Position numbers and translations under genes: made by a program
The notes under the pieces: model-generated
The model's database searches: none
Told to the model about the DNA's origin: nothing
The model's input: the letters and a program-made list of their open reading frames with translations, nothing else
Sequence record: MH051918
Reading direction: 5' to 3' (one strand)
Origin: Escherichia phage vB_EcoS_IME347
DNA length: 50,048 nucleotides
Shown: positions 29,685 to 50,048 of the stretch, piece after piece
How the letters are laid out: every line of letters starts with the position of its first letter
Numbering within the stretch: the first letter of the stretch is position 1

Positions 29685-29716
29685 AAAAAAGGCTCCTTAT
29701 TGGAGCCTTTTCTTTT
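29685..29716. terminator. bidirectional intrinsic terminator
   Basis: aaaaaaggctcc-ttat-tggagcctttt hairpin flanked by A and T runs, between convergent genes. Confidence 0.65.
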
Positions 29717-30053
29717 ACATGATGGTTACTTTGTTGTCGTCTTTCATTTTTCGTGAAGTCTGTGTAGCGATCAGGTCGTCATATCCCATCTTTCCTTTGT
29801 TCCAGTGAAAGACGGTATTGTAGACGCCGGAATCTTTATAGCACATTACATGTACGTTCTTACGCAGGTGCTTGTCGAAAATCACGTTGTCTGATTGGTT
29901 GATCGTCACGGTCTTTTCGGCGCAGTTGATTGTAGCATGAGTCGAACCGTTCAGAGAGAGGCGGCTGGCGTCAACCGGATATCCGATATTTGCATTGAAT
30001 GCCATAGCGTTAAAAGAAGCTGTGAACATGATAGCGGCGATGATTTTTTTCAT
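29715..30053 (-). CDS. secreted hypothetical protein (112 aa) with cleavable signal peptide
   Basis: N-terminus MKKIIAAIMFTASFNAMA-F is typical of a Sec signal peptide with an AXA site and no lipobox Cys; has its own upstream motif module at 30076-30129. Confidence 0.5.
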   Translation of the reverse strand: MKKIIAAIMFTASFNAMAFNANIGYPVDASRLSLNGSTHATINCAEKTVTINQSDNVIFDKHLRKNVHVMCYKDSGVYNTVFHWNKGKMGYDDLIATQTSRKMKDDNKVTIM

Positions 30054-30109
30054 TGGTGTTTCCTCGTTTCGTTTTGATGAATGCAGTATAGCCCCGTTTC
30101 CGGGGCTTG

Positions 30110-30129
30110 TTTTAGCAATTCGTGCTGTC
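30110..30129 (-). promoter_or_regulatory. intergenic motif copy (reverse orientation) with hairpin and TATACT
   Basis: Reverse complement reads TGACAGCACGAATTGCTAAAA and includes the stop codon of the 216-aa gene, followed on the - strand by hairpin ccccggaaacgggg and TATACT. Confidence 0.5.
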
Positions 30130-30778
30130 AGTTGTAACCTTGGAATCTGGCATAAGGAATCTTGAGCCGTCCACGGCCTGAGAATATCTCAGCGAAAGAC
30201 TTCTGGTTATTCCTTATCCATGTTGTTTGCAACTGCGATCCCGTCCATCTCATTAGGTTCCCCGAGTAGCCAACGGCGAAACCGTCGTCACTCCACTGCC
30301 CGAAGCAGTTATTCCATAGGAAAAACGGGTTGAATCCCGGCGTCACCGACACGACCCGACCCTCAAGGTTTACGTTTCCGGCAACGTCAAGGAATCCCAT
30401 AATTCGAGGCATTGTCGCAGCGCTCGCGGCAGACCAGACAAGATTCCCGCTGGCGTCGAAAACGTCCAAGTAGCCCGACACGTTGGGCTTGTTTCTTGAC
30501 GTCCTAATTACCCTGATCGAGTTCGGAACGAACAGGTTCGCGCCGGGATATCCCCAACCGTTATTGGCGGTGAACTGAATCCAGTATAGATAACCATCCT
30601 CCCGCTTGAAATTGTAGTTCAGATAAGCGAGGGAGCTTACATTTCCAAATGGAGTTGACACGTTGTAATCGCCTGTATTCAACATTCCGGGCGTAACGAT
30701 GGAATCGAAAATCGTGTGTTTCTGATCGGAGTTGATCAGGACTACCCCGGCGTCATTCAAAACCTCAAAACCTGACAT
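30128..30778 (-). CDS. hypothetical beta-rich protein (216 aa), paralog of the 30788..31096 product
   Basis: Shares DASGNLV and N-terminal G-hydrophobic-x-hydrophobic-(W/L)-(N)DA motifs with the adjacent ORF; Gly/Asn/Ser/Val-rich. Confidence 0.5.
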   Translation of the reverse strand: MSGFEVLNDAGVVLINSDQKHTIFDSIVTPGMLNTGDYNVSTPFGNVSSLAYLNYNFKREDGYLYWIQFTANNGWGYPGANLFVPNSIRVIRTSRNKPNVSGYLDVFDASGNLVWSAASAATMPRIMGFLDVAGNVNLEGRVVSVTPGFNPFFLWNNCFGQWSDDGFAVGYSGNLMRWTGSQLQTTWIRNNQKSFAEIFSGRGRLKIPYARFQGYN

Positions 30779-30787
30779 AATTCCCCC

Positions 30788-31096
30788 TTAGTTGAACATG
30801 TAGACTTCTACGTATAGCGTGAGATCCACCGATGGATTTCTCCCCGGAACGTAGATGATATCAATGCCTCCCGATCTGCACACGGGGGCGTAATCGGTAA
30901 CGTATGTCGCTCCGAGGTTCGCACCCATCACGGAGGCGAACGAATTCGAATCCGTCACTCCCGCGATATTTAGCTGAACCCTGTCAACCGATCGCGGAAA
31001 GCTGACATTATACCGCCCGACAAATCGGGTGCTGTAATCACCGAGATCGACAACGAGATTTCCCGAAGCGTCCCAACATTGCAAGCCAGCCGCCAT
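30788..31096 (-). CDS. hypothetical protein (102 aa), paralog of the N-terminal part of the 216-aa protein
   Basis: MAAGLQCWDASGNLVVDLGDY motif; first gene leftward of control region B. Confidence 0.5.
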   Translation of the reverse strand: MAAGLQCWDASGNLVVDLGDYSTRFVGRYNVSFPRSVDRVQLNIAGVTDSNSFASVMGANLGATYVTDYAPVCRSGGIDIIYVPGRNPSVDLTLYVEVYMFN

Positions 31097-31609
31097 AGCA
31101 TTTTCCTCCCAAAATTAATGAATACACATATTAGCTTTTTGCCCTCGGGGAGTCAAAGTTACAGATTTTGCGGTGTAACATCTGTCTACTTTTGTAACCA
31201 AAATGAGGCGTGACAAAATTCGCTCATTTTTTAATCAGCATGACGCACCTTAAGATATAGAAAACTCCTTATAATATATATAGATAGATATAAATTGTTA
31301 TTTTACCTTTTATATATAAATTAGAGGTGTAACCGTTGTATATATTGTCACGGTGTATTTTGTGATGCGCTCAATTTTCTACATCATAATCATGTGAATT
31401 CTGTATTGCGGTATTTTTCTATAAACACAGTTACATTGTATACAGTGGTTACGCCGCAATAAAACACGCCTCAAACGCTTGATATTTATGGACTCGCATT
31501 GTCACGGGTAATTTTGTGACGCCCGAATACACTCATTGACATCGTTACAGGTTGACTAAATGCCGGGAATGGTTATACTGTCCACATCATCAACGAAGGA
31601 GATAAACGA
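31097..31609. promoter_or_regulatory. AT-rich divergent control region B with operator-like inverted repeats
   Basis: 513-bp non-coding region; GTCAC-N10-GTGAC-type elements at 31207-31223, 31345-31370 and 31498-31524; conserved block at 31423-31465 shared with region A. Confidence 0.5.
31552..31579 (+). promoter_or_regulatory. sigma70-like promoter (TTGACT-N16-TATACT) for the recombination operon
   Basis: TTGACT at 31552-31557 and TATACT at 31574-31579, 16-nt spacer, about 30 nt upstream of the RBS of ORF 31610. Confidence 0.5.
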
Positions 31610-32686
31610 ATGTTCAAGGTATTCACGAATGACCAGCTTTCTAACGACGCATATCACGATCCTGAAGGTTGGGCGGCGGAGTACGTAAGCGGCTCAAGCC
31701 TCGCAGAAATCTTCAATACCTGCCCTGCGAACTGGCGGTTCAAGAAGAACGAGATCACAAAGGCTCTTGAGTTCGGTACTCAGTCACATACGAACTTCGA
31801 AAGCAAGGCTCTGTTTGAGGCGTCATATAAGCGCTGCCCTCACCCGAAAGAGTTTAAGGATCTGATTACGTCACAGTCGGCTCTCGCTGCGAAATTAAAA
31901 TCATTCGGCCTGAAAGGTACGAGCGGCAAGCAATATCCCGATCTGATTCGCATGATGGTTGATTGCGGTGAAATGCTCAACGTGCAATGGCTAATTGAAA
32001 TGATCGCGGAAGCGGAAGCGCGAGCGGAAGGAAAGAAACTTGTGGACGCCGAAGCATACGACGCTTGCGTAACAATGCGCCAAGTTCTGGAGAACATCCC
32101 CGAGCACAACGCTTGCATTAACAGCCCAACGGCGATGCATGAGGTTTCAATCTTCGGGGTGATTTCAGGAGTCAAAGTCAAGGTTCGCTTAGACCATCTG
32201 GATTTCGCGGAGAACGTTCAGGCGCGTGTCCTGACTGGTTTCAACAACGAAGGCGAACCAGAATACGAAGATGTGATTTACCCTGAAGCTCTCGTGATTA
32301 CCGATTTCAAGACAACCCAAAGCGCTAACCCGATGGAGTTCCCGAGGCTCGCGTTCAACCACGGCTACTACCTGAAAATGTCACTACAACATGACCTGCT
32401 CAAGCGAGCGATTCAGGCCGGAGCGTTCGAAGGGGTGAGCAAGGACATTCCTATTATCGTTCGCCTACTCGCTCAGGAGAAGAAAGAGCCTTATCTGCCT
32501 CTTGCGTACCGCATGACGATGGAGCAGATCAGGATCGGGCGTCAACAATATATCAGCGTTGTCCACACGTTTAAAGAGTGCTTGGAGTCAGACGTTTGGC
32601 CTTCATACGCTAACGGAGCGGCAGAGGTTGAACTGGAAACTCCGAAGTTCGTTCGCTACCAGTATGATTCACGTTGCAGCATGTAA
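31610..32686 (+). CDS. recombination exonuclease (PD-(D/E)XK-type, putative)
   Basis: 358 aa; D...(I)TDFKT-like PD-(D/E)XK signature; located upstream of the annealing-protein and SSB genes. Confidence 0.55.
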   Translation: MFKVFTNDQLSNDAYHDPEGWAAEYVSGSSLAEIFNTCPANWRFKKNEITKALEFGTQSHTNFESKALFEASYKRCPHPKEFKDLITSQSALAAKLKSFGLKGTSGKQYPDLIRMMVDCGEMLNVQWLIEMIAEAEARAEGKKLVDAEAYDACVTMRQVLENIPEHNACINSPTAMHEVSIFGVISGVKVKVRLDHLDFAENVQARVLTGFNNEGEPEYEDVIYPEALVITDFKTTQSANPMEFPRLAFNHGYYLKMSLQHDLLKRAIQAGAFEGVSKDIPIIVRLLAQEKKEPYLPLAYRMTMEQIRIGRQQYISVVHTFKECLESDVWPSYANGAAEVELETPKFVRYQYDSRCSM

Positions 32687-32767
32687 ACAGCACAAATAGC
32701 TAAACATGTAATTCTCGGGGTGTTATAATGCACCCCGTAGACAAGAAACCAATCAGGAGATAACGAA

Positions 32768-33421
32768 ATGATTCTTTCCCCACAGTCTGACCAAATCCTC
32801 CCGGCTCTGTTCAAGGCTCGCGGTAAATTCGTGAAGGCGAAGAAAGACCGACAAAACACCCACCTGAAAAACAAGTATGCAACGCTTGATTCCATGATGG
32901 ACGCCGTTACCCCGGCACTTACGGAAAACGGTATTATGATCATGCAATCCATGCTCGACACGAGCACGGACACAACCTTCCATCTGGAAACGATGCTGAT
33001 TCATGCGGAGAGCGGACAGTTTGCCCGGTTCTTTATGTCAATGCCGATCGCGAAGCGTGACCCTCAAGGCGTAGGCTCCGCAATGACTTATGCACGGCGA
33101 TACGGGTTGGCGGCGGCTCTCGGTATCAGTCAGGCGGACGACGACGCGCAGCTTGCCGTTAAGTCAGCGTCGGACTGGAAAAAGGATCTCGACGATTGCG
33201 AAACGTTCGACGAACTGAAAGACGTTTGGGCGAATGCCTTCCGCCAGTGTGACGCAGCGAACAGAACCATCGTTCAAGATCACTACAACCAACTGAAGGC
33301 GAAATTCGAAGTCGGCAAGGCTCGTCCGTTCGCCCCGGCGCAAAAGCCGAAGGTTGAAAAACAGGTTGAACCTGAGCAGCGCAAGCCTGTACAATCTCAA
33401 TCAATCGAAGGTTTCGAATAA
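32768..33421 (+). CDS. single-strand annealing protein (Erf-like, putative)
   Basis: 217 aa; YARRYGL-type motif; position between the exonuclease and SSB genes. Confidence 0.55.
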   Translation: MILSPQSDQILPALFKARGKFVKAKKDRQNTHLKNKYATLDSMMDAVTPALTENGIMIMQSMLDTSTDTTFHLETMLIHAESGQFARFFMSMPIAKRDPQGVGSAMTYARRYGLAAALGISQADDDAQLAVKSASDWKKDLDDCETFDELKDVWANAFRQCDAANRTIVQDHYNQLKAKFEVGKARPFAPAQKPKVEKQVEPEQRKPVQSQSIEGFE

Positions 33422-33468
33422 TATCAACCGGGCGGGTAACACCGCCCTTTATCATGAGGTGAAAAAAT

Positions 33469-33885
33469 ATGCACGTTATCACAGGCGAGATCCGAAAAGC
33501 TCCATTCGTAAAGCAGCAACCAAACGGAAATCTGTATATCATCGAACTGTCCGAGCGATACAAGCCGGGACGCGATGCGGCTGCGGAGTACACGAACTAT
33601 AAGTTCTTCTTCAATGACGGCGGCAGACAAGCGATCGCAGATTGGTACGCCGAAGCATTCCAGCAGGGCAAGGTTATTTCAGTGTCGTGTGAAGTCCTGA
33701 AAGCCGAAGTTCGCGATCACGAAGGCAAGACCTACGTTACCCTTATGCCGGGCGACTTCCCGAAATTGCTCTTCAGTCAGCGAGGCGGTAGCGCTCCGCA
33801 GCAATCACAACAACGCCAGCAGTCGCAGCCTCAGCAACGACAGCCGCAGCAACAACAAAACTTCGACGACGATATCCCGTTCTAA
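33469..33885 (+). CDS. ssb: single-stranded DNA-binding protein
   Basis: 138 aa with Gln/Pro-rich linker and the canonical acidic C-terminal tail DDDIPF. Confidence 0.75.
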   Translation: MHVITGEIRKAPFVKQQPNGNLYIIELSERYKPGRDAAAEYTNYKFFFNDGGRQAIADWYAEAFQQGKVISVSCEVLKAEVRDHEGKTYVTLMPGDFPKLLFSQRGGSAPQQSQQRQQSQPQQRQPQQQQNFDDDIPF

Positions 33886-35857: not shown

Positions 35858-35881
35858 ATAAAAAACCCGCCGAAGCGGGTT
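35858..35881 (-). terminator. intrinsic terminator (- strand) after the primase gene
   Basis: Reverse complement gives aacccgc-ttcg-gcgggtt followed by a T run. Confidence 0.55.
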
Positions 35882-36824
35882 AGATTAAATCCGATGCCTG
35901 ATAAAGCTTGCGTTCCATTCCTGACCGGAAACCTCCCGGATTCGGGATTATCACCTTCAACTCCCGATCGTCCGCCATATACAGAGCTTCCTTATCATCC
36001 GGCGAACATGCAACGCGCAACTCCCTTCCTCCTCTGTACCTGTATGCAACCATTTCCAGATTGGCAGGGGTGAAGCACGTCCACACCTCCTGCCCCGTCG
36101 CAAGGTGTACTCGCTGCGAGTCAATCCAATCAACGCAAAGGTAAATCGCCTTCTCAGTAGAACCTGTCACGGCAACCGATCCGGCAGTGTGCTTCCTTGC
36201 ATAGAACGACTGCTCCCCCTCCTCATTAATGAATAGGATATTGCAAAACTCGTCGTCCAATTCATCTTCATGAACAAGGTGGCATGGAATGGCATGAATT
36301 ACCGATTCTCCGCCATTCTCCAGCGACTTCACGCCTACGGAGTACATCTTATCATCTGGTAGGAAGATCCCCTCATACGTGCTCAGTGGCGTCGTAGGGC
36401 GTAGTTCTGTCCTTTCCATTACAGCCGCGCAAGCCTCATGCTCTGCGATCGCAGCATTCACTACGGCAACCGGAGTGCGGCGAGCCTTTTTATTCGCCTT
36501 GACAATATACTCCTGCGGAACTTTACCCAAGAATCTCCCGGCAATATTGATTGCTTCGCTGTAGTCAGACCCGGAGAGTTTCATTAGCCAGCCGATACCC
36601 GTGTCGTTACCGCACGAGTTGCACACCGCGCCGCCGTCGCCCGGCTCATTTAGTTTATCAGTCCAGCGAAATCGATCTTTACCTCCGCAGTTTGGGCAAG
36701 GCTGGTGTTTCTTGTTAAAAACGTCGTTAGGTAGTCCGCAAACACTCTGCAAGATCTCACGCCACAGCCCTTTCATGTACGGAAGAACATCTTCTTTCTG
36801 GTACTGCATAAAGTTCTCGTTCAC
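35880..36824 (-). CDS. DNA primase (zinc-ribbon + TOPRIM-like)
   Basis: N-terminal zinc ribbon CPNCGG...CNSCGN and downstream acidic TOPRIM-like motifs; 314 aa. Confidence 0.7.
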   Translation of the reverse strand: MNENFMQYQKEDVLPYMKGLWREILQSVCGLPNDVFNKKHQPCPNCGGKDRFRWTDKLNEPGDGGAVCNSCGNDTGIGWLMKLSGSDYSEAINIAGRFLGKVPQEYIVKANKKARRTPVAVVNAAIAEHEACAAVMERTELRPTTPLSTYEGIFLPDDKMYSVGVKSLENGGESVIHAIPCHLVHEDELDDEFCNILFINEEGEQSFYARKHTAGSVAVTGSTEKAIYLCVDWIDSQRVHLATGQEVWTCFTPANLEMVAYRYRGGRELRVACSPDDKEALYMADDRELKVIIPNPGGFRSGMERKLYQASDLI

Positions 36825-36845: not shown

Positions 36846-36900
36846 CGCGTAACAGGAGTTTACCCGCTACGCGCTTTTGTGTTTTAGCTATTTGTGCTCT
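36846..36900 (-). promoter_or_regulatory. hairpin plus reverse-orientation motif copy at the end of the HTH gene
   Basis: On the - strand: motif GAGCACAAATAGCTAAAA (36883-36900, overlapping the stop of gene 36884..37327) followed by stem cgcgta..tacgcg and a T run. Confidence 0.45.
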
Positions 36901-37327
36901 CGACTTCATCCTTTCGAACTACGCGCATGAACTTGCGGTTCTTGCATCGTTTTTCAAGGCACTTTCCGTTAGAGTCGAACTTGAGATCGAATCGCAGCCA
37001 GCTTGCGCGATACCCGGTACAACCCTGACGACGATACGCGCGATGCGCCGCCTCCGCTCCCTGCCAAGAAATCATGCCGCGAACTTTCCATTCGTTCACA
37101 TTCTGATTTGTTACCTTCAGGGCTTTCGCCGTGGCGGAGGGGGAGCCGTAGAATTCGATCAGGGCGTCAAGTCTGGCGCGTAGTCCGGCGCGAACCTCAT
37201 CTTTCAGGATGTAGAATCCGCATCGCTTGCGAGGCTTTACATCTTTGCCCCGTCGTGTACCATTGTTCCCGTTCAGGTGACGACGATCGATTTCCCCGGT
37301 TGATTCTGCAATACGCTTGATTGTCAT
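36884..37327 (-). CDS. HTH-domain protein (YdaS/Cro-like), putative regulator
   Basis: Central segment GSPSATAKALKVTNQNVNEWKVRGMIS resembles a YdaS/Cro-type helix-turn-helix; divergent from the helicase gene. Confidence 0.4.
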   Translation of the reverse strand: MTIKRIAESTGEIDRRHLNGNNGTRRGKDVKPRKRCGFYILKDEVRAGLRARLDALIEFYGSPSATAKALKVTNQNVNEWKVRGMISWQGAEAAHRAYRRQGCTGYRASWLRFDLKFDSNGKCLEKRCKNRKFMRVVRKDEVESTNS

Positions 37328-37339
37328 AATAAATTCCTC

Positions 37340-37359
37340 AATAGCACTTTTTGTTAAAA
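37340..37359 (+). promoter_or_regulatory. intergenic motif copy (AATAGCACTTTTTGTTAAAA) upstream of the helicase gene
   Basis: Variant motif followed by inverted repeat gcgtg..cacgc enclosing TATTATAC. Confidence 0.45.
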
Positions 37360-37420
37360 CTAACTAATCGATGCGTGTATTATACAGTCAACGCACGAGT
37401 AACGCAAAGGATTAAGAACA

Positions 37421-39472
37421 GTGAAAATCACCCAAGAGACACGAGAGTATTTCCGCACTCAAAACATTAAAAAACAGATCGCAATGCTCGGGGAGGATTA
37501 CATCCGACGCACTCAGGAGCGCTTCCGGGTTGGCGATATCACCCCTTACGAATATCAGGTTGCGGCATACTTTGAGATCGCGAAGCGACTCGGGAAAGAG
37601 TACGAACATCCATTTTACGTAAAAGCCTCAGTATCTGCGGGCAAGACGATTATCTTCGCGATGGTGGCGAAACAATGTCAGGCGATGGGGCTGAAAATGC
37701 TCGTTCTCGCTCGTCAAGGTGAGATTGTGGATCAGGACAGTGAGGAGATTGACAACTTCGGAGTTCCGAATTCCATCTTCTCCGCATCGCTCGGAATCAA
37801 GTCCTGCCACTTCCCGATCGTGGTTGGCTCCGAAGGTACTGTAGGCAATGGCCTGTTCAATGAGTTATCCGATTTTGTCCCGCACGTAATCGGGATCGAT
37901 GAATGTCACCAAGTCGATTGGGAGGACGTGGCGAAGGCGATCGAAGGCAAAGAGTCCTATGCGCAAATGACCACGGATAAGGGATCTATCGTAATGGACG
38001 GCGATATTCCTCTGATTGGTGATGATGGATTGCCAGTTACCGGAACGAAGCGTTCTCAGTACACCGTAATCATCGTCGAAATGATGCGCCGTTGCCGGGA
38101 GAGATACGGGCATGAGTTGCGCGTGTTTGGCATGACGGGATCGGAGTATCGCGGCGTCGTTCCAATTCTCGTTGAGAACAAAAAGCTCGTTGGCTTCTGG
38201 CGTGAGCAGGTGACGAACATTGACACGAACTACCTGATTGAGTTCGGCTCAGTTGTCCCAACCGTGTTTGGCTCAACCGAGGGGGTTCATTACGATCTCG
38301 ACAAGTTCAAGGCGAGCGCCGAAGATGGTGTGTCGGACTTCTCAGAGAAAGAAATGAAGGCGATGGAGGCCGAAATCGTCAAGGATAAATCCTTGACCGA
38401 GAAGATTATGAAGATGGTTGCGAAGGAGGCGGAGAAGCGCAACGCCGTGCTTATCACCTGCGCCGGGCAGCGCCATTGCAAAGAAGCTGCGGCGGCATTG
38501 CCGCCGGGAAGCACTTACGCGATCATTACGGACAAGACAAGCCCGAAAGCACGACAGAAGATTTTGGACGACGTTCGCGCCGGGAAAATCAAGTACACCT
38601 TTCAGGTAATGGCGTTAACGACGGGCGTAAACGTTCCGAATTGGGACTTCTCCGTTATCCTACGCAAGATCGGCTCGCTGACATTGCTGATTCAGCTTTT
38701 AGGGCGCGGAATGCGACTGCTGAAGAAATGGCAAATTGAGCAGGGAATGGTTAAGACTGACCATCTTGTATGGGACTTCGCCGGAACTATGGACGAGTTG
38801 GGGCAGCTTTATTTCGATCCAATTTTGGAACAAGCTCAATATCAGCGCCGTTTCGAAAACGGGAAAGACCCGAAGAAATGCGAATTATGCGGTCACGAAA
38901 ACAGCTTCTATGCGCGTCGTTGCGTGAACGTTATCAACGGCCAGCGCTGTGAGCACTTCTGGACATATCAGACCTGTGAAGATCAGGTAGACGAGAAAAC
39001 AAACAAGGTTCTCGTTAAGGGCTGCGGGGCGAAAAACGACGTGGTAGCGCGTGTTTGCCGTTGCTGTGACGTATCGCTTGTCGATCCTAACCTGAAGTTA
39101 TCCGGCAAGGCGTACACGAAAAACGATTGGTACGACGTGAAACACTTCGAAGTTAAGTTGACGAAAAACCAAAAGGGGATAATATTCCATTACGTCCTTG
39201 ATAATGGCGAGGGTGAATTTAATGCATACGAAAAATTCTTCCCGGAGTCCGATGCGAAAGTGTGCGGGACGCTGTGGAAAACGAAAGGTGTATTGCCGCA
39301 CGTATTCGATCCGAAGATGCGCAAATACTTCATTGGGATGAAGAAAGCAATCAAGATCCTGCAATACGCACACCACATTAAAGCGCCTGTTAGAGTCACT
39401 CACCGCCGCAACGCGAAGAAAGAGGACTTAATCAGCCGCAAAGATTTCGGAATGGAGGAAATTCCAGAATGA
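37421..39472 (+). CDS. superfamily II DNA helicase (DExH-box)
   Basis: Walker A VSAGKTIIF and DExH motif GIDECHQ; C-terminal Cys-rich zinc-finger-like region; GTG start as in the track. Confidence 0.75.
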   Translation: MKITQETREYFRTQNIKKQIAMLGEDYIRRTQERFRVGDITPYEYQVAAYFEIAKRLGKEYEHPFYVKASVSAGKTIIFAMVAKQCQAMGLKMLVLARQGEIVDQDSEEIDNFGVPNSIFSASLGIKSCHFPIVVGSEGTVGNGLFNELSDFVPHVIGIDECHQVDWEDVAKAIEGKESYAQMTTDKGSIVMDGDIPLIGDDGLPVTGTKRSQYTVIIVEMMRRCRERYGHELRVFGMTGSEYRGVVPILVENKKLVGFWREQVTNIDTNYLIEFGSVVPTVFGSTEGVHYDLDKFKASAEDGVSDFSEKEMKAMEAEIVKDKSLTEKIMKMVAKEAEKRNAVLITCAGQRHCKEAAAALPPGSTYAIITDKTSPKARQKILDDVRAGKIKYTFQVMALTTGVNVPNWDFSVILRKIGSLTLLIQLLGRGMRLLKKWQIEQGMVKTDHLVWDFAGTMDELGQLYFDPILEQAQYQRRFENGKDPKKCELCGHENSFYARRCVNVINGQRCEHFWTYQTCEDQVDEKTNKVLVKGCGAKNDVVARVCRCCDVSLVDPNLKLSGKAYTKNDWYDVKHFEVKLTKNQKGIIFHYVLDNGEGEFNAYEKFFPESDAKVCGTLWKTKGVLPHVFDPKMRKYFIGMKKAIKILQYAHHIKAPVRVTHRRNAKKEDLISRKDFGMEEIPE

Positions 39473-39954: not shown

Positions 39955-40668
39955 ATGAAAGATATCGAAGATATTTCAACGATCGACTTTGCGGAAACTG
40001 GATGTTCATTTACTCGCGAAGCGCTGGCGGTTTCCGGGTATTATTCAGCGGTTAAAACTCCAACCTGCAAAGAAATCTCAGGCCGCAGATACAAGGGAAC
40101 CAATACGCCGGACGCCGTTCGCGATCTGTGGAGCACTTCTCGCGAGGTCATTGCGTACATGGAAGGCAGATATGGGAAATATGATCTTGACGCTGCGGCG
40201 AGCGAAGATAATAAGGTCTGTGAGAAATTCTACTCACAGGAAACTAACTGCCTAAAAAGATGGTGGGGCAAGAACAAGCACGTTTGGCTGAATCCGCCAT
40301 ACAGCCGCCCGGACGCCTTCGTTAAAAAGGCTATTGAGCAAATGGAGCACGGAAACCAAATTGACATGCTTCTGCCCGCCGATAATTCTACGGCATGGTT
40401 TACTGAGGCTCGCCGTAACGCTGCGGAAATCATCTGGATTGAAGGCGATCTTTATCAGGATCTTGACGGTACGGAATACTCCCGTTCAGGACGTTTGGCC
40501 TTCATTTCTGGTGAAACCGGAAAGCCAGTTGACGGCAACAATAAAGGCTCTGTTATCTTTATCATGCGCCAACTCGCGGAAGGTGAGAAGCAGAAAACCC
40601 ACTATGTCAGCATTGCGGATATTTGCCCGTCCGTTAAAAACAAACGCGCAAGAGCGAGGAATATCTAA
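39955..40668 (+). CDS. dam: DNA N6-adenine methyltransferase (phage Dam-type)
   Basis: Catalytic NPPY motif (WLNPPYS); 237 aa; follows replication genes as in T1-like phages. Confidence 0.75.
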   Translation: MKDIEDISTIDFAETGCSFTREALAVSGYYSAVKTPTCKEISGRRYKGTNTPDAVRDLWSTSREVIAYMEGRYGKYDLDAAASEDNKVCEKFYSQETNCLKRWWGKNKHVWLNPPYSRPDAFVKKAIEQMEHGNQIDMLLPADNSTAWFTEARRNAAEIIWIEGDLYQDLDGTEYSRSGRLAFISGETGKPVDGNNKGSVIFIMRQLAEGEKQKTHYVSIADICPSVKNKRARARNI

Positions 40669-45003: not shown

Positions 45004-46566
45004 TTACATTAAGCGCGGATTGATATAAATGTTGTCGTCCACACGGCAAACGTAATTCATGCTTTCCAGCGTTTCCAGCAACGTTTCGATACGCTCCGCA
45101 ACCTTTTGCTGCCCGTTAAACGGAGTGACGTTCCGGCACTTCGCGATCACGCTCTGAATCTGCGCCCGGCCTTTGTTCTTTTTGGCGATCTCACTAACCA
45201 CGTCGATAAGCTTGCGTGATTCAGCTTCATCACCTGCGAAACCTGCGGCGTTTGCAGACGAGAGATAAGTTTTTGACAACTCGTTAAACGTCATGATCGC
45301 TTCCTGCATTGTGTCCAAGTCGATCTCACGATTCGCCCGGTTCGGCTTCTCACCAGCCCAATTCTTGATCGTGTGAATCACGGACGCGATACGAATTACG
45401 TGTTTATCGAATTTCCCCAAGTGACCGCGCAACATGGAGTGTGAGTATTTCCCGCCCGCCGCGAAGCTGGCTTCCATATCCTGACGAGCAAGGTTCAGCG
45501 CTCGGGTTGCGTGAAGGCTCAGGCTGAAAACTACCTTCTCTTCGTTCATGACGTTATGAACGAGGCGGTAATATTTGCTCACGAGCGCCTTGTCAACTGG
45601 CTTGTAAACTGCGTCGCCGTTCTCGTCACACAATACGCGAGTACCCAAACGAGGCTCTTCGCGAACCAGTAAGAAACGCTCGGAAACACCGATACCGCGC
45701 TGACCTGCATCCATGATGCCCTTGATTGTTTCGTCCTGCGCGATTACGCAAATTGCACCAACCGGACGTAAAGAAAGGTTGTTGTCCTGATTGGATCGAG
45801 CTACTTCCATATGGTTCATATCCCAAGCCTTCAGGATTAGCTCGCTGTTCGACTTCTTATCAGTCCCGCCATACGTCAAACCGAGAAGTGTATTGATTGC
45901 CGTCGCTTCGTCCGAGATAACGGAGAAGTTACCCTGAATCGCCGCAACCTTAGCCAAACCCTCTGGAGTAGGATCGGAAACCGCAAACACAACGTTAGCA
46001 GCCTTTTTGAGCTTCTCTTCGATTTTCTCCTTCTCTTCGTACAGGGCAACCATTGAGTTTCCTTTTACGTCGTTCTTGATCTCCTTTTCGATCTTGCGGA
46101 GTTCCCCGGCGAGGCGTGAACGTTCGGCCTTACGCTTCTCGTTGATGCGGTCAATCTCTGCTCGCATCGGGTTAATGGCTGCGGAGTTGATCGCAGATTT
46201 ACCCGTTGACGGCGGCTGGCTGATTACCATGTAAAGTGCGGTTGGCTGCTCTTCACCGTGATAGTCAACCCAAAAGCGACCGAGCATCGCGGCGGACATA
46301 CATCCGATAAAGTGAGCGTATGCGGACGAAACCGGGAATTGCACTGATTCAGCTTTAGCCTTTGCGTATTCGTAAACGAGGTTATCGCCACCGAGGGAAA
46401 TCAACGGAAAACGATCGTTGCCGCTGTTAATCTCTTCGGGCTTATCCCAAAAAGCAAATGAATCCGAGAAGCCGTTTTCGCGAATAGCGATCGCCACCGG
46501 ATTTACTCCAGTAGCTGCGGCGATTTCTTGGATCTGATTGATGGAAAGTTTATTTTGGAAGAACAT
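45004..46566 (-). CDS. P-loop ATPase, putative replicative helicase/primase-associated (DUF3987-like)
   Basis: Walker A ISQPPSTGKSA and Walker B-like VISDEAT; 520 aa; preceded by a motif module at 46585-46637. Confidence 0.55.
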   Translation of the reverse strand: MFFQNKLSINQIQEIAAATGVNPVAIAIRENGFSDSFAFWDKPEEINSGNDRFPLISLGGDNLVYEYAKAKAESVQFPVSSAYAHFIGCMSAAMLGRFWVDYHGEEQPTALYMVISQPPSTGKSAINSAAINPMRAEIDRINEKRKAERSRLAGELRKIEKEIKNDVKGNSMVALYEEKEKIEEKLKKAANVVFAVSDPTPEGLAKVAAIQGNFSVISDEATAINTLLGLTYGGTDKKSNSELILKAWDMNHMEVARSNQDNNLSLRPVGAICVIAQDETIKGIMDAGQRGIGVSERFLLVREEPRLGTRVLCDENGDAVYKPVDKALVSKYYRLVHNVMNEEKVVFSLSLHATRALNLARQDMEASFAAGGKYSHSMLRGHLGKFDKHVIRIASVIHTIKNWAGEKPNRANREIDLDTMQEAIMTFNELSKTYLSSANAAGFAGDEAESRKLIDVVSEIAKKNKGRAQIQSVIAKCRNVTPFNGQQKVAERIETLLETLESMNYVCRVDDNIYINPRLM

Positions 46567-46641: not shown

Positions 46642-47058
46642 TTACAAGTATTTCGCTTCGAACGTTGTCCCGTCCGCGATGGAGAATCCCACCTCTTCGC
46701 GGAACAGAGTCCAGCGACATCCTTCGCTATCGAAGATGTACCCGGCGACGCCACCGAGCGCCCGACCACTTTCAACCTGATAGCGCTTGCCTACTTTGAA
46801 GGACTTCTTCATCGGATTCTTGTGATCAAGCCCGGTACACTTCAGGGTTTTCGTTTTCAACTCGGTGAACTTCGCAAAGTGTATTTCATCGACGTTGTGG
46901 ATCTGGAATTCGTCATGCTTTCCGAGCGGGTAAAACTTTCCGTCAGGGTGCTTTACTTCTCGCGTACCGTCGTCATGCTCGCGGCCTTTATACAGGTTGT
47001 TTGTTGTGAATCCGGTAACTGATTCCGCTGAAGTGCATTTCAGTTTGATAGTTTTCAT
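46642..47058 (-). CDS. hypothetical protein (138 aa)
   Basis: RBS AGAAGGAA on the - strand; N-terminal MKTIKLKCT...FTTNNLYKG motif is related to ORF 4726/7442/43070. Confidence 0.5.
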   Translation of the reverse strand: MKTIKLKCTSAESVTGFTTNNLYKGREHDDGTREVKHPDGKFYPLGKHDEFQIHNVDEIHFAKFTELKTKTLKCTGLDHKNPMKKSFKVGKRYQVESGRALGGVAGYIFDSEGCRWTLFREEVGFSIADGTTFEAKYL

Positions 47059-49794: not shown

Positions 49795-49860
49795 GAGTTG
49801 CTCCGTTGTTTTGTGTGCTTCGTTTCGATGAGTGTATTATGCCAAACCAAGCCGATCGAT

Positions 49861-49880
49861 GTTTAGCAAAAAGTGCTATT
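49861..49880 (-). promoter_or_regulatory. intergenic motif copy (reverse variant) at the head of the leftward array
   Basis: On the - strand: AATAGCACTTTTTGCTAAAC, upstream of gene 49516..49794. Confidence 0.45.
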
Positions 49881-50048
49881 CCTGAAATTGTCGATTATTC
49901 CACCGATTCTGGAATAACTGGAATACTTGATGATTACTCATGATTGCAAATGACAAGTTGTGATTATTGCGTGATGTGGAATGATTGCTGTGATTGTTGC
50001 TTGTAATGCAATGAATGTGGAGGGGAGATTATTATGATGCGCTCCTCG

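Follow-up and report, generated by a model that had tools for sequence, protein, structure and literature searches.

A conserved promoter and an origin-like repeat module upstream of the recombination operon of the T1-like phage IME347

The gap upstream of the exonuclease gene and its promoter

The window analyzed here is the complete ~50-kb genome (50,048 nucleotides, record MH051918) of Escherichia phage vB_EcoS_IME347 (IME347), a T1-like siphovirus (Drexlerviridae); IMG/VR UViG_2974601010 is the same sequence. The nearest named relative of IME347 is BrunoManser (Tunavirinae, Sertoctavirus), with ~78% identity across two thirds of the right half of the genome. Our subject is region B, the gap between the ATG of a leftward open reading frame (ORF) of 102 amino acids (complement of 31094–31096) and the ATG at 31610 of a rightward ORF of 358 amino acids, the exonuclease VIII-like gene that heads the recombination operon. 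A preliminary description of this DNA, made by a model from the letters, had called the gap non-coding and AT-rich. It is both, as the longest ORF that overlaps it has 44 amino acids and its GC fraction is 0.355, compared with 0.497 genome-wide. The features of region B and the operon are as follows.

31097–31609, no strand: region B, comprising all of the non-coding gap (513 bp, 35% GC)
31128–31156, minus strand: weak, lineage-specific leftward promoter-like site TTGACT-N17-TAATAT (9/12) for the genes of the 102- and 216-amino acid proteins
31158–31163, minus strand: lone GTTACA unit in reverse orientation, flanking array 1 on its left
31172–31198, plus strand: array 1, TGTAAC (31174), TGTCTAC (31183), and TGTAAC (31193)
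31207–31220, minus strand: reversed TTTTGTSAC unit, GGCGTGACAAAATT (reverse strand AATTTTGTCACGCC), with the unit at 31210; identical to 95–108 in region A
31263–31323, no strand: AT core (87% AT) holding the family-conserved block AACTCCTTATAATATATATAGATAGATA; candidate DNA-unwinding element
31326–31351, plus strand: array 2, TGTAAC (31328), TGTATA (31337), and TGTCAC (31346), at 9-bp spacing
31345–31368, plus strand: copy 1 of a 24-nt direct repeat, TTGTCACGGTGTATTTTGTGATGC, overlapping the last unit of array 2
31430–31453, minus strand: array 3, GTTACA (31430), TATACA (31439), and GTTACG (31448), inverted with respect to array 2
31472–31484, minus strand: exact core consensus for integration host factor (IHF), WATCAANNNNTTR (TATCAAGCGTTTG); a predicted site, one of two in the genome
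31499–31522, plus strand: copy 2 of the 24-nt direct repeat, TTGTCACGGGTAATTTTGTGACGC, consisting of a TGTCAC unit (at 31500) and a TTTTGTGAC unit
31544–31549, minus strand: reversed unit GTTACA immediately upstream of the −35 hexamer
31552–31579, plus strand: sigma70-type promoter, TTGACT (31552–31557), 16-bp spacer, TATACT (31574–31579); consensus score 10/12
31596–31612, plus strand: ribosome-binding site (RBS) AAGGAG and the ATG (31610) of the 358-amino acid exonuclease VIII-like gene
31610–33885, plus strand: operon of the exonuclease VIII-like protein (31610–32686), an Erf-type annealing protein (32768–33421), and SSB (33469–33885)

The preliminary description had placed a strong rightward promoter at 31552–31579, and TTGACT-N16-TATACT is indeed found there with its score of 10/12; transcription would be expected to start near 31586. 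We collected 43 related loci through the exonuclease protein, with exonuclease identities from 100% down to 42%. The pattern TTGAC(T/A)-N16-TAnAnT occurs at a fixed distance from the ATG in 42 of the 43 loci (34 distinct sequences). The segment from RBS to start, AAGGAGATAAACG(C)AATG, is unchanged in IME347, T1, BrunoManser, Shfl1, and SA32RD, and a promoter is annotated at the homologous spot in the T1 and SA32RD records. With the −35 hexamer, 16-bp spacer, −10 hexamer, and RBS all kept in 42 of 43 loci, a strong promoter serving the recombination operon is well supported. This support comes from conservation and not from motif scanning, since promoter-like matches in region B do not exceed those in shuffled sequence (3 vs. 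3.5 expected). Counts of consensus promoters in the AT-rich regions were likewise nowhere above shuffles. Judged by its conservation, the sigma70-type promoter upstream of the exonuclease gene is real. A re-annotation of the related phage TLS gives only three intergenic sigma70 promoters, one of which is upstream of the exonuclease gene (PMC11447400). Literature searches for a transcriptome of a T1-like phage found none.

Phased repeats and AT-rich cores in regions A and B

Upstream of the promoter, region B is rich in short repeats. The hexamer TGT[AC]AC occurs nine times, compared with 0.26 expected, and 38 times in the whole 50-kb genome. The units of the three arrays are phased at 9–10 bp, which is one helical turn. 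Strict TGT-N(6-7)-TGT-N(6-7)-TGT chains number three in the genome, all inside region B or a second gap termed region A, and strict phased triples are almost confined to these two regions in IME347, T1, BrunoManser, and TLS. Arrays 2 and 3 together form an imperfect inverted repeat with 31-nt arms (77% complementary) and 68 nt between them. The 24-nt direct repeat has two matches in the genome, with none expected. The arrays lie 60–440 bp upstream of the exonuclease gene and mostly distant from the core promoter, which is free of array units except for the one hexamer touching the −35.

Three operator-like inverted repeats had also been proposed for this gap. Short local inverted repeats number 10 in region B against 5.2 ± 3.4 in dinucleotide shuffles, and 30 of 300 shuffles reach 10. 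As this is not above chance, local inverted repeats were dropped as candidate operators. They cluster at 31156–31230, where opposed TGTAAC units face each other. What had been taken for operators is more aptly viewed as phased direct repeats in three arrays.

The AT core sits between arrays 1 and 2. The predicted duplex stability of this core is −0.956 kcal/mol/bp, ~6 standard deviations from the genome mean of −1.42 (standard deviation 0.08). No other 60-bp segment of the genome is as unstable as the cores of regions A and B (−0.93 and −0.96 kcal/mol/bp); the next is at −1.11. In IME347, T1, BrunoManser, and TLS, which represent two subfamilies, the A and B cores also rank first and second among 60-mers in AT content, with AT fractions of 0.87–0.92 as compared with 0.77–0.83 for the third-ranked 60-mer.

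The exact IHF consensus is located at −138 from the exonuclease ATG in 14 of 14 Tunavirus loci, with variation at its four N positions. Exact matches occur in other clades at −142 or within the AT core, and the density of the IHF consensus in these gaps is ~20-fold that of the remaining locus sequence. Regions A and B contain no DnaA boxes.

Region A has the same parts in the same order as region B.

1–450, no strand: region A, which together with 49795–50048 makes a gap of ~704 bp between two early gene arms
59–84: array
95–108: GGCGTGACAAAATT
144–204: AT core (90% AT)
222–240: array
318–341: inverted array

The preliminary description had noted a block shared between regions A and B. This block was confirmed (31423–31464 vs. 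311–352, 88% over 42 nt, containing array 3), and further collinear blocks were found: 31207–31220 equals 95–108 (14 of 14 nt), and the AT-rich center at 31300–31316 resembles 172–188. TGT[AC]AC occurs four times in region A, compared with 0.36 expected. The two regions also align with each other within T1 (91 nt at 75%) and within BrunoManser (94 nt at 78%), with E about 1e-10. Overall, region A is more alike between genomes than A is to B. The duplication is therefore old, and by these alignments region A is an ancient paralogue of region B. The inverted-array block behaves differently, being alike within a genome and unlike between genomes, which suggests that the A and B copies track one binding protein or undergo gene conversion.

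Region A has further features of its own. At its left edge, overlapping the first array, is a promoter-like site at 52–80 on the plus strand (TTGACT-N17-TACAAT, 10/12), which points through the AT core; the first gene, at 451, begins ~370 nt further on. The position of this site is kept in neither T1 nor BrunoManser. The leftward part of region A (49930–49996) has a second phased repeat, RTGATTR, at 49930, 49940, 49960, 49981, and 49990 on the plus strand. A GTGATGT at 49971 joins the series, so that the phasing is ~10 bp on one strand. RTGATTR has 47 copies genome-wide and forms no array in region B, which has a single copy (31387–31393). It is distinct from TGTNAC; TGATTG motifs are also present in region A of T1.

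A gap of 460–550 bp upstream of the exonuclease gene is kept in T1, BrunoManser, Shfl1, SA32RD, TLS, and the IMG/VR loci. Family-wide it is AT-rich (29–37% GC) and mostly 460–530 bp long. We compared the layout in 16 representative loci, counting positions from the exonuclease ATG. The layout is present in 14 of the 16, down to 62% exonuclease identity. The AT core lies at about −350 to −290. Plus-strand arrays occur at the position of array 1 (a triple array at about −436 to −400) in 13 loci and at that of array 2 (−293 to −250) in 15, and a minus-strand array occurs at the position of array 3 (about −177 to −150) in 11. Across 12 non-redundant gaps, the distances between TGT trinucleotides on the same strand show a peak at 9 bp (49 vs. 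5.7 in dinucleotide shuffles, z 18), with a second peak at 10 bp (z 11) and a harmonic at 18–20 bp.

The repeat unit itself differs between clades. It is TGTAAC in IME347 and Tunavirus, TGTAATC or TGTAAGC in SRT8 and BrunoManser, and TGTTTC or TGTTC(C/A) in the Rtp-, TLS-, and Klebsiella-phage-like clades. This pattern implies that the arrays would be binding sites of a co-evolving phage-encoded protein. A phage protein rather than a host factor is indicated because the architecture is fixed while the recognition core switches by clade.

Control of middle genes in both directions had been proposed for this region. That proposal is only partly supported. The leftward promoter-like site scores only 9/12 and is not conserved in relatives, and the genes that it faces belong to a minus-strand cassette.

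29715–31096, minus strand: leftward cassette encoding a 112-amino acid secreted protein, a 216-amino acid protein, and a 102-amino acid protein (phrog_25729, phrog_4524, and phrog_7961)

A tblastn search with this cassette against T1 and BrunoManser gave no match. In TLS the full layout is present without a divergent gene, the upstream neighbor being the co-directional tail gene J. Because the TLS neighbor is co-directional and T1 and BrunoManser lack homologues of the IME347 cassette, the divergent arrangement is a local accident and not a property of the element or the family. The cassette, which stands in place of a co-directional gene pair plus cor in T1 and BrunoManser, appears to be a swapped, inverted accessory module adjoining the tail-fibre gene.

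A different repeat is known from the same phages, a 21-nt intergenic direct repeat, aaATAGCACnnnTTGnTAAAA, reported in T1-like phages without an assigned function (PMC11447400). Like the TGTNAC arrays, it belongs to this phage family and has no assigned function. It differs from them in sequence, in occurring as single copies ~76 nt upstream of many genes, and in being absent from region B, whereas the TGTNAC arrays are confined to regions A and B and are not described in the TLS paper (PMC11447400). The T1-type form, ATAGCACnnnTTGnTAAA, has 31 copies in IME347, compared with 0.27 expected, and none within 31097–31609. Its copies (for example, 969–986, 1234–1251, 37341–37358, and 49862–49879) are mostly co-directional with flanking genes and upstream of early genes; the one at 37341–37358 sits between the Cro-like and helicase genes described below.

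Several other signals were surveyed. GATC occurs at 284 sites in the genome and at none in regions A and B, where ~2.6 and ~2.9 would be expected at the genome rate, and fewer once AT richness is allowed for; a Dam-type methylase gene is located at 39955–40668. No tRNA genes were found.

Candidate binding proteins and an origin-like reading

The genome encodes several proteins that might act at these regions.

45004–46566, minus strand: DUF3987 (SF6, MCM-related) replicative helicase of 520 amino acids (PF13148, E 3.7e-42) with a C-terminal winged helix; candidate array binder
35880–36824: DnaG-type primase
37421–39472: SF2 helicase
36884–37327: Cro-like helix-turn-helix protein (phrog_2856), with a weak P22_Cro match (E 1.8e-4) below the Pfam cut-off

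The C-terminal 70 amino acids of the DUF3987 helicase are modeled as a winged helix. Outside this tail, the IME347 helicase is closer to those of SRT8 and BrunoManser (86–87%) than to those of Tunavirus and T1 (82%). In the last 70 residues the order is reversed, with 53–55 of 70 identical to Tunavirus (55 of 70 to T1) as compared with 43–45 of 70 to SRT8 and BrunoManser. The grouping of the tail thus matches the repeat class (TGTAAC vs. TGTAATC), as a single phylogenetic contrast. A Cro-like regulator is also annotated in T1. In its helix-turn-helix region, the Cro-like protein matches BrunoManser at every residue (30 of 30) and T1 at 21 of 30, so this region does not follow the repeat class. 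The region upstream of the Cro-like gene (37328–37420) has no TGTNAC array. These comparisons favor the helicase tail over the Cro-like protein as the array binder. In the reading preferred below, the winged-helix tail of the DUF3987 helicase would probably bind the arrays.

A wider search for contrasts between tail and repeat yielded no second independent case. A first short-query protein search gave one match, a single-protein scan of IMG/VR gave two loci, and an alignment scan gave Tunavirinae only. A tblastn search with the tail gave no additional discordant lineages, Lg3 being Tunavirus. Among 106 homologues, column conservation in the tail is 0.61–0.65, compared with 0.83–0.86 in the best core blocks, and the N-terminal 40 residues are as variable (0.62). 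Two mosaic segments, one at the C-terminus of the helicase (45004–45213) and one in the N-terminal half of the neighboring 138-amino acid protein (46879–47058), are nearer to T1 than to BrunoManser within an otherwise BrunoManser-like replication module. Compared with every other Tunavirus copy, the helicase gene of one locus (IMGVR_UViG_2974611450) changes reading frame ~50 codons from its end, the cause being a frameshift or else misassembly of the record.

The reading that we tentatively prefer, giving it slightly less than even weight, is that region B combines the promoter of the exo-erf-ssb genes with a replication origin of the type built from iterons and an unwinding element. The last ~60 bp are the conserved host RNA polymerase (sigma70) promoter and RBS of the exonuclease-Erf-SSB operon, and the upstream 400 bp would be an ordered protein-assembly module. 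A phage-encoded, sequence-specific protein would fill the phased units, and the top candidate is the winged-helix tail of the self-loading DUF3987 helicase. The bound protein, together with IHF, would distort the DNA, open the AT core, and load the helicase, with the IHF bending site placed between array 3 and the promoter. The phage primase and host polymerase III would then begin replication. Region A would be a second copy of the module, so that, as in Bacillus phage SPP1, there would be two origin-like sites, separated here by ~19 and 31 kb around the circular map.

We extend this to the family with yet more reserve: A and B may be the two replication origins of the Drexlerviridae, at which the helicase would read clade-specific TGTNAC iterons with its tail, melt the AT core with IHF, and load itself. 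The B copy, immediately before exo-erf-ssb, could also convert theta replication into recombination-dependent concatemer synthesis, as proposed for SPP1 oriR. The step from phased repeats around an AT core to helicase binding, melting, and loading is one that we infer from the arrangement of the DNA. Two features of iteron origins are present here, namely short direct repeats that are clustered in A and B and rare elsewhere, and an adjacent, easily melted AT-rich segment; such a segment is also seen in T1, BrunoManser, and TLS. GC skew was left out as origin evidence because regions A and B both coincide with changes in the direction of transcription.

The origin-like reading is ranked first because the anatomy of region B matches that of the origins of SaPI elements (Staphylococcus aureus pathogenicity islands) and phage SPP1 and because it adjoins exo-erf-ssb. 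SaPI Rep proteins are self-loading helicases that use a C-terminal winged helix to bind 6–12 iterons of five or six nucleotides, which are located to either side of an AT-rich region (PMC9371898). Like region B, SaPI origins have short (5–7 bp core), element-specific repeat sets flanking a central AT-rich region (PMC9371898). In both systems the helicase has a C-terminal winged helix and the repeat sequence varies between related elements. However, SaPI Rep is of SF3 type, whereas the IME347 helicase is DUF3987 (SF6, MCM-related). The SaPI ori is directly downstream of rep, whereas in IME347 the module occurs twice and is separated from the helicase gene by 13 kb. Unlike in SaPI, the flanking arrays of IME347 have the same direction and a third, inverted array is present.

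SPP1 has two similarly organized origins, each with direct repeats as well as an AT-rich unwinding element, and its exonuclease, annealing protein, and SSB are implicated in a later switch to concatemer synthesis (PMC6316719). Both SPP1 and IME347 are virulent pac-type siphoviruses with two paralogous regions of direct repeats and AT-rich DNA (oriL and oriR; A and B), one of which lies in a long intergenic stretch. The two sets of regions have no sequence similarity, and the function of the IME347 pair is inferred. In contrast to the candidate in IME347, gp38 of SPP1 is an initiator dedicated to binding origins, its partners being a loader and a helicase of DnaB type; gene 38 contains oriL.

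The control regions of polyoma- and papillomaviruses also resemble region B, in that promoters and bidirectional initiator repeats lie by an AT tract and the initiator is itself the helicase. These viruses are eukaryotic and use unrelated SF3 proteins (large T antigen or E1), so that the analogy is one of layout alone.

Several points weigh against the origin-like reading. Region B is 13.4 kb from the helicase gene (45004–46566) and 4.3 kb from the primase gene (35880–36824), and is thus neither within nor beside an initiator gene, unlike the SaPI and lambda origins; SPP1 oriR, however, also lies apart from its initiator gene. Arrays 1 and 2 have the same orientation, unlike the opposed iterons of SaPI. 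The link between helicase tail and repeat class is weak because it is a single contrast and ~1/7 of IME347 genes are T1-like anyway (roughly p 0.15). The N-terminal half of the 138-amino acid protein adjoining the helicase gene (46879–47058) is T1-like as well. Shared transcription-factor sites would explain the paralogy of A and B equally well, because these regions hold the genomes' few good sigma70 promoters. Finally, the T-rich phased units of some clades could in part reflect intrinsic curvature.

Alternative readings and implications

The strongest alternative, which we consider unlikely, is that the arrays are bound by a phage-encoded transcription factor, which would repress or boost the early sigma70 promoters of A and B together. 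The AT core would then be promoter-upstream architecture, and replication would not start here. The best sigma70-like promoters do sit in A (52–80, over its first array) and in B (31552–31579), and TLS has one of its three intergenic sigma70 promoters before the exonuclease gene (PMC11447400). A GTTACA unit abuts the −35 hexamer, a copy of the 24-nt repeat lies at −87 to −64, and a Cro-like helix-turn-helix protein is encoded at 36884–37327.

Paralogous control regions with triple sites recall lambda OL and OR, which likewise are two regions of three sites each next to early promoters, in a phage with a Cro-like gene. However, lambda operators are 17-bp dyads over promoters, whereas the IME347 units are direct repeats of 6–7 bp, phased at 9–10 bp and mostly far upstream around the AT core. 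Most units are 130–440 bp upstream of the gene and clear of the −35 and −10 hexamers, and local dyads are not above chance. TLS keeps the full layout without a divergent gene. The helix-turn-helix of the Cro-like protein is identical to that of BrunoManser despite the different repeat class, and its own upstream region has no TGTNAC array. Operator function also needs no AT core of 87–92% AT flanked by arrays. The layout of the arrays is thus not classically operator-like, and it fits origin-like nucleoprotein assembly at least as well as a transcriptional switch.

Passive architecture is a further and improbable explanation, in which curved AT-rich DNA with sites for the host proteins IHF, H-NS, and Fis strengthens the promoter and the repeats reflect curvature. 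Strong phage early promoters are often found within AT-rich DNA. The IHF consensus is conserved, and the T-rich phased units of several clades (TGTTTTCTTTTGTTCC and similar) would bend DNA. On the other hand, the TGTAAC and TGTCAC units of IME347 and Tunavirus do not consist of A/T tracts. The unit core stays constant inside a clade but changes from one clade to another, even though the hosts are the same enterobacteria, and regions A and B retain genome-specific shared blocks. DnaA boxes are absent from both. The range of curvature or UP elements (about −40 to −60) leaves conserved features as far as −440 unexplained.

It is highly improbable that the arrays are packaging sites (pac, bound by the small terminase subunit) or a hotspot for programmed recombination or cleavage next to the recombination genes. 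Several pac phages have small terminase subunits that bind short phased repeats, the conventional opening point of T1-like genomes is beside region A, and region B adjoins the exo, erf, and ssb genes. However, two copies 31 kb apart are unexpected for a single pac site, and the small terminase of IME347 is equally far from those of T1 (69%) and BrunoManser (70%). Nothing ties region B to the ends of packaged DNA, and the pac of TLS has been assigned to a P22-like AGATTT sequence.

Least credible of all is a small RNA or small protein encoded in the gap: the T1 record annotates a 46-amino acid ORF in the homologous gap and some Tunavirus loci have one of 60 amino acids, but these ORFs are not conserved, their frames are broken by single-base insertions and deletions among close relatives, and IME347 has no equivalent, its longest ORF (44 amino acids) being elsewhere in the gap. 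A noncoding RNA was dropped as well, since Rfam 15 scans of the whole genome and of 30900–31800 gave no match at gathering or E≤1, both halves of the gap fold with energies like those of shuffles (z −0.55 and −0.27), and region B has no convincing terminator.

The replication origin of T1-like phages has been reported as unknown (PMC11447400, PMC7718038), and the TLS paper found no iteron-like repeats (PMC11447400). Our literature searches for a mapped T1 origin found none. A promoter combined with an origin-like module of repeats and AT-rich DNA has apparently not been described previously for the Drexlerviridae. T1 belongs to the classical T phages, and the Drexlerviridae are among the commonest coliphage isolates, including fermentation contaminants and therapy candidates.

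For phage engineering, region B offers a compact, strong promoter and control cassette. If the arrays serve a transcription factor, the same sites would be the operator set of the early-gene switch of the Drexlerviridae. If the origin-like reading is true, a DUF3987 (MCM-related) phage helicase would have in them its first candidate DNA target. A pair of ~400-bp elements with a precise anatomy makes the start of T1 replication testable.

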